DNA of 64,000 nt from an uncultured Gemmatimonadaceae bacterium (GTDB lineage: Bacteria > Gemmatimonadota > Gemmatimonadetes > Gemmatimonadales > Gemmatimonadaceae), in assembly GCA_963829055.1 (NCBI GenBank), contig CAWHHI010000011.1, forward strand, positions 32,001 through 96,000, read 5' to 3'. A program made the translations under genes and the position numbers. Below are positions 26,758 to 34,802 of this stretch, piece by piece; within the stretch, counting starts at the first letter, position 1; each line of letters starts with the position of its first letter. The notes under the pieces were generated by a model that was given only the letters and a program-made list of their open reading frames with translations, was not told the DNA's origin and ran no database searches.

Positions 26758-28470
26758 GTGCCGCACAGCGCGGCGCGGCCTCCAGACGTACCGGCGCCTG
26801 CAGGCGTCACAAGCCAGCCGGTCCCGAGCATGGGACTGCTGACCGGCTTCAACGGCAACCGTCGCGTGCCCGTGCCCGCGAACGAGCCCGTACGATCGTA
26901 CGCGCCCGGCTCACCCGAGCGCGCCGCCCTCAAGGCACGCCTCGAGTCCATGGCGTCCGAGCGCATCGAAATTCCTGTCATCATCGGTGGCAAGGAATAT
27001 CGCTCGGGGGAGATCGCGCATGCAGTGATGCCGCACTCCCACGGTCACGTGCTCGCGGATTGGCACAAGGCGACGAAGGAGCACGTGCTGCTCGCCGTCG
27101 ATGCCTCACGCGAGGCGCAGCGTGAATGGGCCAACTGGCCCTGGGAAGATCGCGCCGCGGTCTTTCTCAAAGCGGCCGAGCTCCTCTCGACGACGTGGCG
27201 CGCAACGCTCAACGCGGCCACGATGCTCGGCCAGTCGAAGACCGCGTATCAGGCGGAGATCGACTCGGCGTGCGAGCTGATCGACTTCCTGCGCTTCAAC
27301 TGCGCGTTCGCGCAGGAGCTGTACGACGAGCAGCCGTCGAGCAGCAACCAGGCGTGGAATCAGCTCGACTATCGCGCGCTCGAGGGATTCGTCTACGCGG
27401 TGACGCCGTTCAACTTCACGGCGATCGGCGGCAATCTGCCGAGCGCGCCGGCGCTCATGGGGAACAGCGTGATCTGGAAGCCGGCGTCGACGGCGATGCT
27501 CTCCGGCTACTACGTCCTCAAGCTGCTCGAGGCCGCGGGACTTCCGCCCGGCGTGATCAACTTCGTTCCCGGCGACGCGGCGATGATCTCCGACGTGTTG
27601 CTCTCGCATCGCGATCTCGCGGGCGTGCACTTCACGGGCAGCACCGGCGTCTTCAACAGCATGTGGAAGACGATCGGCGCGAACATGAACAAGTATCGCA
27701 CGTACCCGCGCATCGTCGGTGAGACGGGCGGAAAGGACTTCATCATCGCGCATCCGTCGGCGGACGCGCAGGCGCTCGCGGTCGCGATCGCGCGCGGCGG
27801 CTACGAGTACCAGGGCCAGAAATGCTCGGCCGCGAGCCGCGTGTACGTGCCGAAGTCACTCTGGCCGCAGGTGCGTGATGCGACCGTCGGGATGATCGAG
27901 CAGATCCAGATGGGCGACGTCCGCGACTTCCGCAACTTCATGGGCGCGGTGATCGACGAGAAGTCGTTCAAGAAGATCGGCGACTACATCGCCGACGCGA
28001 AGACGAACGCGCGCATCGTGGCTGGTGGCGTCACGAAGGGCGACGAGGGCTACTTCGTCGCGCCGACGCTCATCGAGACGGACCAGCGCGACTATCGCCT
28101 GATGTGCGAGGAGATCTTCGGCCCGGTCGTCACGGCGTTCGTCTACGACGATGACAAGTGGTCGGAGACGCTCGACATCGTCGATGCGACGTCGCCGTAC
28201 GCGTTGACGGGATCGGTGTTCTCGACGGACCGTCGCGCGATTCAGCAGGCGAACGTGGCGCTGCGTAACGCGGCCGGAAACTTCTACATCAACGACAAGC
28301 CGACGGGCGCGGTGGTGGGTCAGCAGCCGTTCGGCGGCTCGCGCGCGAGTGGCACGAACGACAAGGCGGGCTCGAAGCTGAACCTGATGCGCTGGGTGAG
28401 CCCGCGGACGATCAAGGAAACGTTCTCTCCGCCGACGGAGCACACGTATCCATTCATGGCTGAAGAGTAG
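26758..28470 (+). CDS. pruA: 1-pyrroline-5-carboxylate (L-glutamate gamma-semialdehyde) dehydrogenase
   Basis: NEPVRSYAPGS, TPFNFTAIGGNL, FTGS, GETGGK, YQGQKCSA, EEIFGP, NFYINDKPTGAVVGQQPFGG; start uncertain. Confidence 0.95.
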   Translation: MPHSAARPPDVPAPAGVTSQPVPSMGLLTGFNGNRRVPVPANEPVRSYAPGSPERAALKARLESMASERIEIPVIIGGKEYRSGEIAHAVMPHSHGHVLADWHKATKEHVLLAVDASREAQREWANWPWEDRAAVFLKAAELLSTTWRATLNAATMLGQSKTAYQAEIDSACELIDFLRFNCAFAQELYDEQPSSSNQAWNQLDYRALEGFVYAVTPFNFTAIGGNLPSAPALMGNSVIWKPASTAMLSGYYVLKLLEAAGLPPGVINFVPGDAAMISDVLLSHRDLAGVHFTGSTGVFNSMWKTIGANMNKYRTYPRIVGETGGKDFIIAHPSADAQALAVAIARGGYEYQGQKCSAASRVYVPKSLWPQVRDATVGMIEQIQMGDVRDFRNFMGAVIDEKSFKKIGDYIADAKTNARIVAGGVTKGDEGYFVAPTLIETDQRDYRLMCEEIFGPVVTAFVYDDDKWSETLDIVDATSPYALTGSVFSTDRRAIQQANVALRNAAGNFYINDKPTGAVVGQQPFGGSRASGTNDKAGSKLNLMRWVSPRTIKETFSPPTEHTYPFMAEE

Positions 28471-28675: not shown

Positions 28676-29584
28676 TTGCCATACACGTTCTACACCGCCG
28701 ATGTCTTCACGGACACGCTCTTCGGCGGCAACCAGCTCGGCGTCCTCCCCGATGCGCGTGGTCTCACCACCGAGCAGATGCTCGCCATCACGCGCGAGTT
28801 CAACTACTCCGAGTCGACGTTCGTCTTTCCGCCTGACGATCCGAAGCACACGCGCCGCGTGCGCATCTTCACGCCCGGCGGCGAGGTGCCGTTCGCGGGA
28901 CATCCCACCGTCGGCACCGCGCACGTGCTCGCGGCGATCGGCGAGATTCCGCTCACCGGCGACCTGACGCGCATCGTGTTCGAGGAGAACGTCGGGCCGG
29001 TGCCGGTCACGATTCGCGCTCGCGACGGGAAGCCCGAGTTCGCGCAGCTCTCGGTGGCAATGCTGCCGCAGGTGAGCGAGCCGCCCGTTAGGCGCGAGCG
29101 GCTGGCCGAGCTGCTGTCGCTCGACGTGCAGGATCTGCTGGATGGCGAATACGCGCCGCAGACCGTGTCGTGCGGGCTACCGTTTCTGCTCGTGCCACTG
29201 CGCGATCGTAAAGCGGTCGCGCGCTCGCGACTGAGACTCGAGCCGTGGGAGCAGACGCTTCGGGGCACGCCGTCGGAAATGGTGATGGTGTTCGCGGCGG
29301 ACGCGGAGCGGCCGGGCTCGGACATCCGCGCGCGCATGTACGGGCCGGCGGTGTCGGTCGCGGAAGATCCCGCGACGGGCTCGGCGTGCGCGTGCCTCGC
29401 CGGCTACCTCGCGGCGCGCACGCCGCGCGATGGCACGCTGCGCTGGGTCGTCGAGCAGGGCTTCGAGATGGGCCGCCCGAGCATTCTCGAGATCGAAGCC
29501 GACAAGCAGAACGGCGCCATCACGGCGGTGCGCGTTGGCGGAAAGACTGTGCTTGTTTCGAAGGGAGAGTTGTTAGGCGTGTAG
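28676..29584 (+). CDS. PhzF family isomerase/epimerase
   Basis: DVFT..FGGNQL, EFNYSESTF, RIFTPGGEVPFAGHPTVG, EDPATGSA, EQGFEMGRPS. Confidence 0.93.
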   Translation: MPYTFYTADVFTDTLFGGNQLGVLPDARGLTTEQMLAITREFNYSESTFVFPPDDPKHTRRVRIFTPGGEVPFAGHPTVGTAHVLAAIGEIPLTGDLTRIVFEENVGPVPVTIRARDGKPEFAQLSVAMLPQVSEPPVRRERLAELLSLDVQDLLDGEYAPQTVSCGLPFLLVPLRDRKAVARSRLRLEPWEQTLRGTPSEMVMVFAADAERPGSDIRARMYGPAVSVAEDPATGSACACLAGYLAARTPRDGTLRWVVEQGFEMGRPSILEIEADKQNGAITAVRVGGKTVLVSKGELLGV

Positions 29585-29845: not shown

Positions 29846-32520
29846 ATGTCACAGACCCGAACCGCTACTCCGCCGTCGGTCCGCGCAATCGACCCCAACG
29901 AGCTGCGCGTGACGCGTCTCCGCGCGCTCCGAGGGCCGAACTACTGGCGCCTCGCACCCGTCATCGCGTGCGACGTGCGACTCGGTGCGCTCGAGTCCGT
30001 CACGTCCGCCGACATCCCGCACTTCAACGAGCAACTCCTCGCCGCTCTGCCCACGTTGCGCGAGCACCCATGCTCACGCGGCGCGCCCGGCGGCTTCGTC
30101 GATCGCCTCGAGCAGGGGACGCACATTCCCCACATCCTCGAGCACGTCGCCCTCGAGCTGCAGAACCTCGCCGGCAGCGACGTCGGGTTCGGGCGCGTCG
30201 TCGAGTCCGGCGACGCCGGCGTGTGGTGGGTCATCGTCGCGTATGAGGAAGAAGACGTCGGCCTCCAGAGCATGCGCGACGCCGTCTCGCTCGTTCGCGC
30301 GTCAATGGGCGGACCGCCCTTCGACATCGCGGCCGCCGTCGCTGAGCTGCAGGACCTCCACGAGCGCGTGAGACTCGGCCCGTCCACATGGGCCATCGTC
30401 GAAGAGGCCCGGCGGCGAGGGATCCCCGTTCGTCGCCTCAACTCACGCTCGCTCGTTCAGCTCGGGCTCGGCCGCAACTTGAGACGCATCCAGGCGACGC
30501 TCACCGATCACTCGAGCGCTATCGCCATAGAGATCGCGCAGGACAAGGACGAGACGAAGCGCGTGCTCGAAGCCGTCGGCTTGCCCGTCCCGCACGGCAA
30601 CGTCGCGGAATCCGCGGACGAGGCGGTCGAGTTCGCGCAGGAGATCGGCTTCCCCGTCATCCTCAAACCACTCGACCTGAGCCATGGCCGCGGCATCTCG
30701 GCGCGGCTCATGGACGAGCAGGCGGTGCGCGAGGCATGGGCACGGTCGGAGCAGTACGCGGATCGCTTCATCGTCGAGCAGTTCTCGGAAGGGCGCGACC
30801 ATCGCGTGCTCGTCATCGGCGGCCGCGTGGTCGCAGTCGCTGAACGCGTGCCCGCGCACGTCGTCGGCGATGGCACGCACACCGTACGTGAGCTCATCGA
30901 CATCGCGAACCAGGACCCGCGACGCGGTGTCGGTCACACGAAGGTCCTGACGCGACTCGCGTGCAACGACGTGACCGCCGAGCATCTGGCGCGATCCGGC
31001 CTAACGCTGACGAGTGTACCGGCGGCTGGCGAACAGGTGTCGCTCGCCGCCACGGCGAACCTCTCGACCGGCGGCACGTCGATCGACCGCACCGACGAGA
31101 TCCACCCGAGCAACGTGACCGCATGCGAGATGGCGGCGGGGGTCGTCGGCCTCGACATCGCGGGCATCGACGTCATGACGCGAGACATCTCGGTGCCGTT
31201 CCGCGAGAACGGCGCGGCGATCATCGAGGTGAACGCGGCACCGGGCGTGCGAATGCACACGCATCCCACGGAAGGCGAACCGCGAAACGTCGGTGCGCCG
31301 ATCATCGACATGCTGTATCCGCCGGGAGCGCCGACGGCCATTCCGGTCGTCGTCGGTGACGGGCACGAACGGGAAGACGACCACCGTTAGGCTCATCGCC
31401 CACATCTTCCGCCATACGGGCAAGACGGTCGGCTTCACGACGACCGACGGCGTGTATCTGAACAACCGGCTCGTCATCGAAGGCGACATGACGGGTCCGT
31501 TCAGCGCGAACATCATCCTGTCGAACCCGACGGTAGACGTCGCCGTGCTGGAGACGGCGCGCGGCGGCATCATCCGCGCGGGGCTCGGGTTCGATGAAGC
31601 CGATGTCGGGGTCGTGCTGAACGTCAGCGCCGATCACCTCGGGCTCGGCGGCATCAATACGCTCGACCAGCTCGCGGACGTGAAGAGCGTGATTGCGGCC
31701 GTCGTGAAGCGCGAAGGCCACGCGGTGCTCAACGCGGACGACCCGCTCGTGCTCGCGATGCGCGAACGATCCCCGGGCGACATCGTGCTGTTCTCGACGA
31801 TGGGAGAGGACGAGAATCCCGCGATCACCGAGCACCTCGCGCGCGCCGGCATCGCGGTGCTCGTCGAGCGCGATACGTTCGTCATCAGACGCGGCCGGCT
31901 GCGTATTCCGATCGCGAGCGTCCGCCAGGTGCCGCTCATGATGGGCGGCGCGGCGCGCTTCCAGCGCGGCAACATCCTGGCGGCCATCGGCACTGCCTAC
32001 GTGCAGGGCATTCGCTACGACGACATCCGCGCGGGGCTGCTCTCGTTCTTCCCCTCCCCGGCGTTGACGCCCGGCCGGCTCAACCTCATGCGCGTCGGGC
32101 GCGGGCGTCTGCTCGTGGACTACGCGCATAACGCGGCGGCGGTGGGCGGCCTCATGGAGCTCGTCGCATCGCTCGATGCCAGTCGCCGCTTCGGTGTGAT
32201 CACCGCGCCCGGCGATCGGCGCGACGAGGACATCCGCGAGCTCGGCCGGCTGGCCGCGGGGCTCGATCGCGTCATCGTGAAGGAAGACAACGACCGGCGA
32301 GGTCGTGAGCCTGGCGAGATCGCGCGGCTGGTGCGCGACGGGCTCACGGCCGGCGGCATGTCGCCGGATGCGATCGAAGTCGTCGCCGACGAGATGGCCG
32401 CAGTCGATCGCCTGGTAGCGAATGCTCGAGGACCACGACATCGGGGTCGTGCTCGCCGACGATGTGCCGGGTGTGCTCGACCATCTGCAGAGACGCGCGC
32501 AGCCCGCGGCGGTGCCATGA
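29846..32520 (+). CDS. cphA: Cyanophycin synthetase CphA1 (frameshifts ~31350 and ~32420)
   Basis: LRGPNYW, Cx19HxxEH, RLGPST, ATP-grasp (LKP...HGRGIS, ANLSTGG, EVNAAPG), Mur domain (VTGTNGKTT, LETARGG, PGRLN, VDYAHN, PGDRRDED). Confidence 0.95.
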
Positions 32521-33651
32521 CCGTGAGCGACGCCGGCAAGCCCGGTGCGCTTCCGGATCCCGCGACGGAGATCCGGATGACGACGCTGCACGCGACGCGT
32601 GGCGCGAACTACTGGTCGCGTCGGCCGGTGACGCGCGTGGACGTGATCGTCGGCGCGTACGACGACATCTCGTCGGCGCACGTACCCGGGGTGACGGCGG
32701 CGCTCGTGGGAGCGATGCCCAGCCTCATCGAGCATCGCTGCAGCATCGGAGAGCGTGGCGGGTTCATCATCCGCCTTCGTCGCGGGACGTACATCCCGCA
32801 CATCGTCGAGCACGTCGCGCTCGAGCTGCAGACGCCTCATCGGTCATGACGTTGGCTACGGCCGCACGCGCGGTGGCGACGTTCCGGGCGAGTACACGAT
32901 CGTGTTCGAGCACATGCACGAAGAAGTCGGGATTCGCGCGGCGGCGCTGGCGCTCGACGTCGTTCAGCGCGCGTTCGCTGGAACGCTCGACTCGGTGGAG
33001 CCCGCGCTGGCCGAGCTGCGCGCGCTCGCCGCTCATCCGCAAGCGGCGCCGCTCAAGGCGCACGTCCTGTGCGGCATCACCGGCGGAGCATGGCGTGCCG
33101 AGACGAGGACGGAGCTTGCGAGCCGAGGCTTCGGCGTCGATGATGATCTGGTGGTGGATGTCGCGCCGGGATACATCCTCCAGGCAGGACTACCCTACTC
33201 TCGATCCGACGCCGCTATCGTGCTCGACGATCAACCGACCGACGTGCCCGAACGGTACCGTGACCCCGAGCGCGCATCGCGCCTCGTGTCTGTCGTGGCG
33301 GACGGCGTGCGCGCTGGCGGCTTGCTCGTCGCGCCGGCGAAATCGTGGGACGTGCAGGATCGCGCCCGCGATGCGGGTTGCCGAGTCGCGGTGTTCGCGA
33401 CGGATGCGAACATCACCGCGCGTGACAAGAAGGTCGCCGGCGCGGCGGCGTGGGTCGAGGATGGTCGCATCGTGTTGGAGCACGTCGATGGCGTCGTCGA
33501 TGGTGGCGCGGTTCGGGACGACGTCGCTCCGACCGTCCAGGTGGCCGCCGCGTTATGCGTCTTCGGCGTCGAGGCCCTGCGGCCCGACCAGCATCCCGGA
33601 CGGGGATCCGCGCGCGCCCTCGAGCACGTGAGCACGCATGGCGTCGGGTAG
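32517..33651 (+). CDS. Truncated CphA paralogue: CphA N-domain plus degenerate Mur-ligase domain, no ATP-grasp (frameshift ~32835)
   Basis: TRGANYWS, HRCSIGERGGFIIRLRRGTYIPHIVEHVALELQ, GYGRTR; then CGITGG and GYILQAGLPYSRSDAAIV resembling the M domain; ATGA overlap with cphA. Confidence 0.85.
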
Positions 33652-34594
33652 CGACGGCGCCCGCCGTCCTGCCCAGCGCTCCTCCACGTCCGCCGCGCGA
33701 CGTACTCCGGTCGATACGGCACGTGGCGCGCTCGTCCTCATCGGCGGCGCCTGCAGCCCCGACGGCGACGCGTTAGGTACGTTCATCCGTCTCGCCGGAG
33801 CCGATCGCGGTGCCGGGATCATGGGCTTCACCACGGCGTCGAGCAATCCTGTGCGCGCCGCGGCCGCCTGGCGGAAGGACTTCGCTGCGGCGGGTGTCGA
33901 GAACGTCGAGTTCCCGCTCGTGCAGAACCGCGACGCCGCGAACGACGCTGCGCTAGCCGATCGCGTGCGAGAATCGCCCGGCCTCTTCCTCGGCGGTGGT
34001 GATCAGGTGCACCTCATCGCGACGCTGAGCGGTACGCTGCTGGGCGCCGCGATCCGCGAGGCGTTCGTGCGCGGCGCGGTCGTCTGCGGCACGAGCGCGG
34101 GCGCGGCGGCGCTCACCGAGACGACGATGGCGGGCGGTGAGGTCGACGAGGATGGAAAGGAGGTCGAGATGTACATCGGCCCGGGACTCGGCCTGCTCTG
34201 CTTCGGAACGCTCATCGATACACACTTCGCGCAGCGCCGGCGACTGCATCGTCTCTTCGTGGCGATCGCCGGCTACCCGCAGCTCATGGGCCTCGGTATC
34301 GACGAGGACACGGGCCTGGTGGTGCGCGGCTCGATCGGCGAGGTGGTCGGCAAGGGTGGCGTCACGTTCGTGGACGGTCGCGACACGGTGCGCTTCGACA
34401 ACGCGAGCCAGGTGAAGAAGGGTGGCGAGCTGACGCTGAGTCATCTCCGCGTCGGGCTGGTCGGGACGGGACAGCTGTTCGATCTGGAGGCGAGAGAGCT
34501 CGTTAGGCTCGTTGCGTCGGAGGCCGTCGTCCGGGCCGGCAATGGTGAGGTGGGAACGAGGAACCGGGAACGGGGGACTGGAGCCGCTCGCTGA
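33638..34594 (+). CDS. cphB: Cyanophycinase
   Basis: LVLIGG, GGDQ, GTSAGA (catalytic Ser), IDTHFAQRRR, GIDEDT; in operon with cphA. Confidence 0.92.
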   Translation: MASGSDGARRPAQRSSTSAARRTPVDTARGALVLIGGACSPDGDALGTFIRLAGADRGAGIMGFTTASSNPVRAAAAWRKDFAAAGVENVEFPLVQNRDAANDAALADRVRESPGLFLGGGDQVHLIATLSGTLLGAAIREAFVRGAVVCGTSAGAAALTETTMAGGEVDEDGKEVEMYIGPGLGLLCFGTLIDTHFAQRRRLHRLFVAIAGYPQLMGLGIDEDTGLVVRGSIGEVVGKGGVTFVDGRDTVRFDNASQVKKGGELTLSHLRVGLVGTGQLFDLEARELVRLVASEAVVRAGNGEVGTRNRERGTGAAR

Positions 34595-34682: not shown

Positions 34683-34802
34683 ATCCAACACAGAAGGACG
34701 CGCGTCGCTGCTGCGCCTCGGGTTGCCCGTGCGGCAGTTTTCTGCGTCCTTCTGCGTTGCGCGCGCAGCGCCGCCTGCGTCATTCTGCGTCGCTGTTGGA
34801 CC
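34683..34802. repeat. Internally deleted copy of the TCCAACAGCGACGCAGAAGGACGC MITE-like element
   Basis: TCCAACACAGAAGGACGC ... TTTTCTGCGTCCTTCTGCGT...TTCTGCGTCGCTGTTGGA; matches 48449-48724. Confidence 0.75.

Follow-up and report, generated by a model that had tools for sequence, protein, structure and literature searches.

A separate gene for a CphA1-type N domain, conserved between cphA and cphB in some Gemmatimonadota, as a candidate stand-alone endo-cyanophycinase

Background

The N domain of the cyanophycin synthetase SuCphA1 (PDB 7TXV, 7LG5) holds a site, formed by C59, H79, H83 and E82, that cuts cyanophycin; the backbones of Y14, C59, A96, G97 and T101, together with side chains from E90, R70, Y110 and S60, contact the polymer, and the side chains of S603 and E607 in the M domain touch the polymer bound at this site (PMC9262961). 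Here we describe a gene, designated X, that encodes such an N domain apart from the synthetase and lies between cphA and cphB in a stretch of 64,000 nucleotides (nt) from an uncultured Gemmatimonadaceae bacterium (assembly GCA_963829055.1, contig CAWHHI010000011.1, positions 32,001 to 96,000 of the forward strand), hereafter the window. We found that X is a real gene conserved at this position in some Gemmatimonadota, and its conserved residues suggest that it is likely a stand-alone zinc endo-cyanophycinase supplying primers in trans to the neighbouring synthetase.

Supplied in trans, the N domain on its own restores a primer-dependent CphA1; it is insoluble unless a loop packing on M is mutated. 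In E. coli, twice as much polymer is obtained with an active N site (PMC9262961). The cyanophycinase CphB is exo-acting and fast alone, the CphA1 N site is slow, and CphA1 cannot balance cutting against building by expression (PMC9262961). Lys499 is the P-loop lysine of CphA1, whose M core touches three G cores in the tetramer (PMC9427784). Clusters with two cphA copies and no cphB were noted, and left unexplained, in the available part of PMC10687191. An X-type gene goes unmentioned in the available parts of PMC10206079, PMC8050183 and bioRxiv 2023.01.09.523336. We found neither a description of X nor a described family to which it belongs in the literature searched, outside which lay subscription papers, a 2023 review and some supplements; the terms 'endo-cyanophycinase' and 'Cx19HxxEH' each retrieved only PMC9262961 there.

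Gene X and its conservation between cphA and cphB

Gene X occupies positions 32517..33651 of the forward strand, on which all features given below also lie. Its ATG at 32517 overlaps the cphA stop as ATGA, and its stop (33649-33651) lies within a 14-nt overlap with the start of cphB at 33638. A preliminary description of the window, made from the sequence alone, had reported a gene of ~378 amino acids (aa) overlapping both neighbours; both overlaps stand, and the length becomes 377 aa once a single extra base at 32834..32835 is discounted. This base breaks the frame once, into pieces of 106 and 271 aa, and two further frameshifts lie in cphA, at 31351/2 and 32420. The frameshifts in both genes are assembly errors. 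For example, a near-identical contig of 1342 nt from an independent run, spanning 31542-32885 with 10 differing letters, bridges both the cphA-X junction and the frame break and lacks the extra base. Four DNA runs were compared: contigs from three of them were without the extra base at 31351/2, from three at 32420 and from two at 32834, and it was likewise missing at 32834 in an RNA-library contig from one of four runs. Programmed frameshifting in X was ruled out, the extra base being absent from relatives and reads. The RNA-library contigs overlie parts of cphA, X and cphB, and such contigs cannot demonstrate transcription. No other PF18921 gene was found in this genome, which is 86% complete.

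Conserved synteny with relatives had been named as a check on the gene, and it was found. Strong matches to X were present in 14 of 60 related genomes, every one with the order cphA-X-cphB; the X frame was unbroken in 13, and the 14th had an assembly gap. In a wider scan of species genomes, of which the best 80 matches, representing 79 loci, were kept, at least 35 X loci were among the matches listed, all titled Gemmatimonadota except for one unidentified bacterium. These 35 had cphA upstream in 34 cases and cphB downstream in 29, the remainder being at contig edges. The family extends over Gemmatimonadaceae and Longimicrobiaceae; its members are named 'hypothetical' or 'cyanophycin synthetase' in databases, and ESM Atlas holds three automatically named Gemmatimonadota clusters of it. 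The preliminary description had allowed that the orthologues might prove to be full-length CphA; they keep the short architecture. Of the 48 rows listed, 22 have a possible start that overlaps the stop of cphA by 4 nt, and in 8 more the overlap is 1 or 8 nt (two duplicate loci included); the 4-nt overlaps suggest coupling to synthesis. In four Longimicrobium loci 1.1-3.8 kb separate cphA from X, and in genome G306 cphA lies on one contig and X-cphB on another. Three Longimicrobium loci (L046:5022-5924, L047:3608-4591 and L054:947-1819) encode between cphA and X a two-repeat protein of ~300 aa with a signal-peptide-like start.

X is under purifying selection. Among 49 orthologues, 15 of 1176 pairs were usable for the ratio of non-synonymous to synonymous substitution (dN/dS), the proportions of synonymous and non-synonymous differences being limited to pS < 0.55 and pN < 0.14. 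The ratios were 0.05-0.39 in the N domain (median 0.19) and 0.08-0.50 in M (median 0.22), the pN filter lowering them and high GC content at third codon positions raising them, and the two pieces of the window copy gave 0.15-0.24 against five relatives. All of these values are well under 1, so that the lack of purifying selection named as a refuting condition in the preliminary description was not seen.

Across 401 Gemmatimonadota genomes, a synthetase was present in 111. In 19 it belonged to the clade of the window's CphA (window-type; at least 61% identity in G), and 92 had only the conventional type. X was present in 15 genomes, all within the 19, and in none of the 92; the remaining four have next to it a conventional CphA1 whose N site is intact. 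A window-type CphA was thus always accompanied by X or by a second, conventional CphA1 (19/19 genomes), although the co-occurring genomes are kin and the counts are not independent trials, which lessens their weight for the function proposed below. A fifth X-less window-type cphA (L062) sits in the same named isolate as the X locus L024; there (L062:3327-8009) the gene is followed by an amidohydrolase gene, IadA-like by eye, and a conventional cphB.

Domain anatomy and residue conservation

The only Pfam family found in X was PF18921, the CphA1-type N domain (32568..33033, boundaries approximate), divided over the two frame pieces (profile 2-67 and 68-112). The Cx19HxxEH spacing noted earlier was borne out: the metal-site motif H57-x-C59-x19-H79-x-x-E82-H83, with R70 inside, reads HRC-x19-HIVEH at 32733..32813 (residues carry SuCphA1 numbers, transferred by alignment). 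The equivalents of G97, R100, T101, R102 and Y110, among which G97, T101 and Y110 touch the polymer in SuCphA1, follow at 32851..32895. The ATP-grasp domain is missing, as had been reported, with no ATP-grasp family detected by Pfam and no G-module match by home-built module profiles, and in all X orthologues N runs directly into M. In NCBIfam the two pieces gave partial cyanophycin synthetase matches of 92.6 and 49.4 bits, against a TIGR02068 cut-off of 850.

The rest of X is a shortened, catalytically dead Mur-like M core (33061..33570, end approximate), in which ~40 residues are deleted past the P-loop helix and the M lid is missing. The P-loop remnant (33070..33096) has Arg at the position of the ATP-binding Lys499, an X-specific conserved loop (33241..33258) replaces the catalytic D585-H586 loop, and the equivalents of S603 and D607 lie at 33283..33303. 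Pfam did not detect this Mur domain. Its Mur-like nature, which the preliminary description had recognised together with the destroyed P-loop, was confirmed by a weak phmmer match in PDB to CphA1 554-640, by a home-built M-core profile (E 2e-7) and by a fold search that grouped it with Mur ligase cores (MurD 3LK7, Z 16.1, root-mean-square deviation (rmsd) 2.9, 161 residues aligned). An AlphaFold2 model of an X orthologue, built with 13 sequences (pLDDT 86, pTM 0.72), matched 7TXV with a TM of 0.75 over the query and 7LGM with Z 22.7 and rmsd 4.4, 324 of 365 residues being aligned over N and M core. The N domain and M core are thus predicted to pack as in CphA1 with no G domain between them.

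The residue counts leave out the window's own copy with its frame break, locus G009, which has a gap, and two duplicate loci; other near-duplicates are included. All seven N-site residues (H57, C59, R70, H79, E82, H83 and E87) were present in 54 of 54 X orthologues. Polymer contacts of the N domain were equally constant, with Y110 and S60 in 54/54 and G97 in 53/54, as was R102 (54/54). On the M core an acidic residue was found at 607 in 47/48 and serine at 603 in 31/48. The ligase residues, by comparison, are lost: K499 is R and R561 is P in 48/48, D585 and H586 are gone, and E558 is kept in only 3/48. M also carries invariant residues specific to X, namely R499, P561, D581, a DVPERY loop and a W/Q/R helix. 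The acidic residue at 607 follows an intact N site elsewhere, being D or E in 26/28 conventional CphA1 and in 16/16 motif-bearing genes of the tandem type (below), but in 1/10 of the motif-less partners.

The N domain had been called paralogous to that of CphA. It is a CphA1-type N domain, but X gives no sign of being a recent copy of the neighbouring cphA: its identity to every CphA1-like group is alike (37-39% in N, 18-19% in M), and to motif-less partners it is 24% in N.

The neighbouring cphA and cphB

The upstream gene (29846..32520, including the two assembly indels) encodes a full-length synthetase (N-G-M-lid) of the Gemmatimonadota-specific clade. It keeps HxC-x19-HxxEH (30065-30145), the P-loop, ETAR and DH, and carries W, V and A where SuCphA1 has Y110, R102 and E607, respectively. 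Such groove changes are general in the CphA beside X: W110 in 31/33 (all 33 conventional CphA1 have Y there), V102 in 30/33, S97 in 26/33, R61 in 30/33, R16 in 33/33 and A607 in 44/49. X-less window-type copies carry the same changes. The M-site residues R561, R566, D585 and H586 are present in 49/49. R70 is lost in 2/33, in one of these (L049:3314-5983) as a natural R70S together with a natural E82Q. We infer that the CphA beside X is a weakened or altered cutter; the metal ligands that it retains speak against an inactive site.

The downstream cphB (33638..34594) encodes a cyanophycinase that exceeds the TIGR02069 cut-off, has intact GTSAG, DTHF and GIDED motifs and belongs to a subtype seen only in X-bearing genomes. 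Two more cphB-like genes lie elsewhere in the genome (G000:C20:794766-796284 and G000:C11:574773-575306), and after the one on C20 comes a frameshifted gene for an isoaspartyl-dipeptidase-like protein that scores below the TIGR01975 cut-off.

Comparison with known systems

By their defining features, X is neither a CphA1 nor a CphA2 nor a Mur ligase. It shares with the SuCphA1 N site (PMC9262961) the PF18921 fold, Cx19HxxEH, H57, F67, R70 and E87, as well as Y110, S60, G97, the M-core contacts acid 607 and, less constantly, S603, and the predicted packing of N on the M core. Unlike SuCphA1, X is a separate gene with no G domain and hence no G-core dimer interface, and its M core is shortened and dead, without M lid; E90, too, is not among its common residues. 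CphA2 (PDB 7TA5, 8FXH) is similarly a CphA1 derivative with a truncated, inactive M of ~150 residues, but it keeps the G site without the N motif, whereas X keeps the N motif without G, as its mirror image (PMC10273328). With CphB (family S51; PDB 3EN0, 7UQV) X would share hydrolysis of the cyanophycin backbone, although CphB is a serine exo-enzyme of another fold and X a predicted zinc endo-enzyme. Despite the fold match to Mur ligases, X is without the P-loop Lys and the C-terminal lid.

The upstream genes of the tandem cphA pairs that occur in Betaproteobacteria, Planctomycetota and Verrucomicrobiota resemble X in having an intact N motif, Y110, acid 607, a degenerate M core and mostly no lid. 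Some are without G entirely (P0221, P0361, P0166, P0207, P0256 and L120; 388-428 aa, with motif, Y110 and D607). X differs in its M signature and in forming a clade apart; most of these genes keep G, and their partners have lost the motif outright. The names CphA3' (upstream gene) and CphA3 are used for such pairs.

Parallel architectures and the origin of X

Among 26 tandem-type proteins chosen by length and domain list, an intact motif and a dead M core were accompanied by stepwise loss of G, at ~720, 590-625, 460-500 and 388-428 aa. In a metagenome scan, in which the best 80 of 789 loci were kept, two N-bearing genes were present in 68 loci and the downstream synthetase was without the motif in 68/68, the motif of the upstream gene being given by the construction of the search, which weighs against counting it in favour of the function proposed below. 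In a separate residue count the motif was missing in 10/10 tandem partners. Pairs with the motif upstream (M mostly dead, no lid) and a motif-less synthetase downstream include L067, L068, L074, L081-L083, L086, L091, L095, L099 and L123-L199. In L120 and L121, 99.9% identical and from one organism, a 406-aa N+M gene lies directly before a motif-less synthetase; in L120:5001-8843 (and L121) the P-loop Lys position is also Arg. No cphB match was found in the best 80 of 789 loci, whose downstream flanks are short and mostly taken up by the partner gene.

Origin was examined in trees of 93, 46 and 33 rows, the first two quick trees, and with one approximately unbiased (AU) test. In the careful 33-row tree, four G-less proteins fell at four separate places within the tandem clade, suggesting four further origins of the N+dead-M architecture in tandem-cphA systems, in one case seen next to a synthetase without the motif. 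X and window-type CphA each formed a clade at 100/100. X was placed on the tandem side at 87/88 (unstarred), a position that might result from M residues lost in common; a grouping of X with its neighbouring CphA was not rejected (p-AU 0.298).

Other reduced forms were seen alongside. Genes without G (L058-L066, L087, L098, L100-L103, L107 and L117-L119), in which a degenerate N part has no motif, the P-loop and DH are intact and both M core and lid are present, adjoin conventional cphB-cphA in Chloroflexota and Gemmatimonadota, and genomes G298 and G411 have them in addition to X. Three planctomycete proteins of ~640 aa (P0363, P0379 and P0402) combine the N motif with a remnant of G, an M core and a lid. 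In L071 and L075 the partners are motif-less, and their G is without lid and omega modules.

Proposed function and alternative explanations

The residue conservation makes the reading of X as a putative stand-alone endo-cyanophycinase well supported. X would bind long cyanophycin across its N domain and M core, with zinc held by C59, H79 and H83 and E82 as base, and a zinc-activated water would cut the poly-Asp backbone, with 4-mers as the main products, as for SuCphA1. Each cut would make a new C-terminus, which the synthetase would extend with ATP, Asp and Arg at hand, priming being the main job; under nitrogen need CphB could trim the same ends, and the same chemistry could speed CphB. The neighbouring CphA, with W110, V102, R61, R16 and A607 round its groove, would be a weak or altered cutter needing primers in trans. 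The dead M domain would be retained because the acidic 607 contact lies on the M core, which would form part of the substrate groove (S603, D607) and cover the hydrophobic loop of the N domain. The preliminary description was right in calling this Mur domain dead and overlooked its likely part in the substrate platform of the cutting site. Selection would retain exactly the parts that form this site and its platform. We favour primer supply because the partner CphA has a remodelled cutting groove and because this architecture is met again next to a synthetase without the motif. The endo-cutting suggested earlier thus fits, and the functional options that had been left side by side can be ranked, with priming first.

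Several observations weigh against this proposal. The CphA beside X has all seven N-site residues in 31/33, compared with 0/10 in motif-less partners, and may be able to prime itself. Inserts and splits separate cphA from X and not X from cphB (L037, L046, L047, L054 and G306), and the operon's cphB subtype occurs in 13 genomes, all of them with X (13/13); both point to degradation. X does not keep the E90 contact, which most other CphA1 also lack; a scaffold role does not account for the X-specific invariant M residues; and P0164, a 300-aa X-family protein in a single-member cluster, has the same architecture without the metal motif. The ties to cphB and the metal motif of the neighbouring CphA, together with the exo-action of CphB (PMC9262961), would suit an active endo-cyanophycinase mainly for mobilisation, which opens granules and provides new C-termini for CphB. 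We consider this somewhat unlikely, given that X occurs without that cphB subtype in two of its 15 genomes (G298 and G411), whereas the CphA clade is present in all 15, and that the N site of CphA1 is slow and CphB fast alone (PMC9262961). The 4-nt overlaps with cphA, the G-less parallel of L120 beside a motif-less synthetase and the lack of cphB matches in the metagenome loci (with the limit on flanks given above) speak in the same direction. A predicted complex of X with a CphB dimer (score 0.01, mark 0.32) counts neither way.

A non-catalytic or barely catalytic subunit, binding the polymer or regulating, that docks on CphA or granules through the remodelled M, with a structural or chain-gripping zinc site, would explain the X-specific invariant residues on the dead M face and the motif-less P0164, and has a precedent in the contacts of the CphA1 M core with three G cores (PMC9427784). 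This is improbable, since the general base E82 and R70 are both kept in every orthologue. At R127 and R131, which lie on the helix carrying the anchoring patch, X has A and an acid, respectively. Moreover, N domains that anchor or stabilise lose the motif, as in CphA2 (PMC9262961) and the tandem partners (0/10). It is more doubtful still that the substrate of X is another or a modified polymer or peptide, for instance with different side chains, that this CphA clade makes. The separate clade of window-type CphA, its own cphB subtype and the diverged partner groove would be understandable in this way, and none of these proteins has been characterised, but the M-site residues of CphA are complete, CphB keeps its cyanophycinase motifs and the groove residues of X are conventional. 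Finally, the frameshift in the window copy might suggest that X is an artefact of assembly or a cphA copy in decay after a deletion, which is scarcely credible: the frameshift is missing from independent contigs, 13 of 14 relatives are unbroken and the 14th is a gapped assembly, dN/dS is well under 1 and the family spans Gemmatimonadaceae and Longimicrobiaceae. Intact relatives, independent contigs and dN/dS refute a deletion pseudogene or misassembly.

Other features of the locus

Upstream of cphA on the same strand lie a PhzF-family gene (28676-29584, Pfam) and a pyrroline-5-carboxylate dehydrogenase gene by eye (26758-28470). A promoter scan gave 0 sites, and three terminator-like sites were found (1.4 expected), one at 34722; these results are uninformative.

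Implications

What is new is the separate gene; the chemistry is already known, and the function proposed for X is read from its sequence. More tentatively, and with less assurance than for X itself, the third synthetase site may have become a gene in its own right five times or more, with N plus a dead M core as the minimal unit, X and the tandem upstream genes being one class of trans primer-makers for synthetases with a lost or remodelled site; comparison with X offers a testable reason for tandem cphA genes. As far as the literature searched reaches, X would be the first natural stand-alone endo-cyanophycinase. It would also be a natural, probably soluble version of the N site, of use in work on the isolated site, in the preparation of defined oligomers and as a supplement to synthetases that depend on primers. 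If the proposal is true, the new invariant M surface of X would be a docking or control site, and cells could set the number of chain ends apart from the level of polymerase, which is impossible for a one-gene CphA1.

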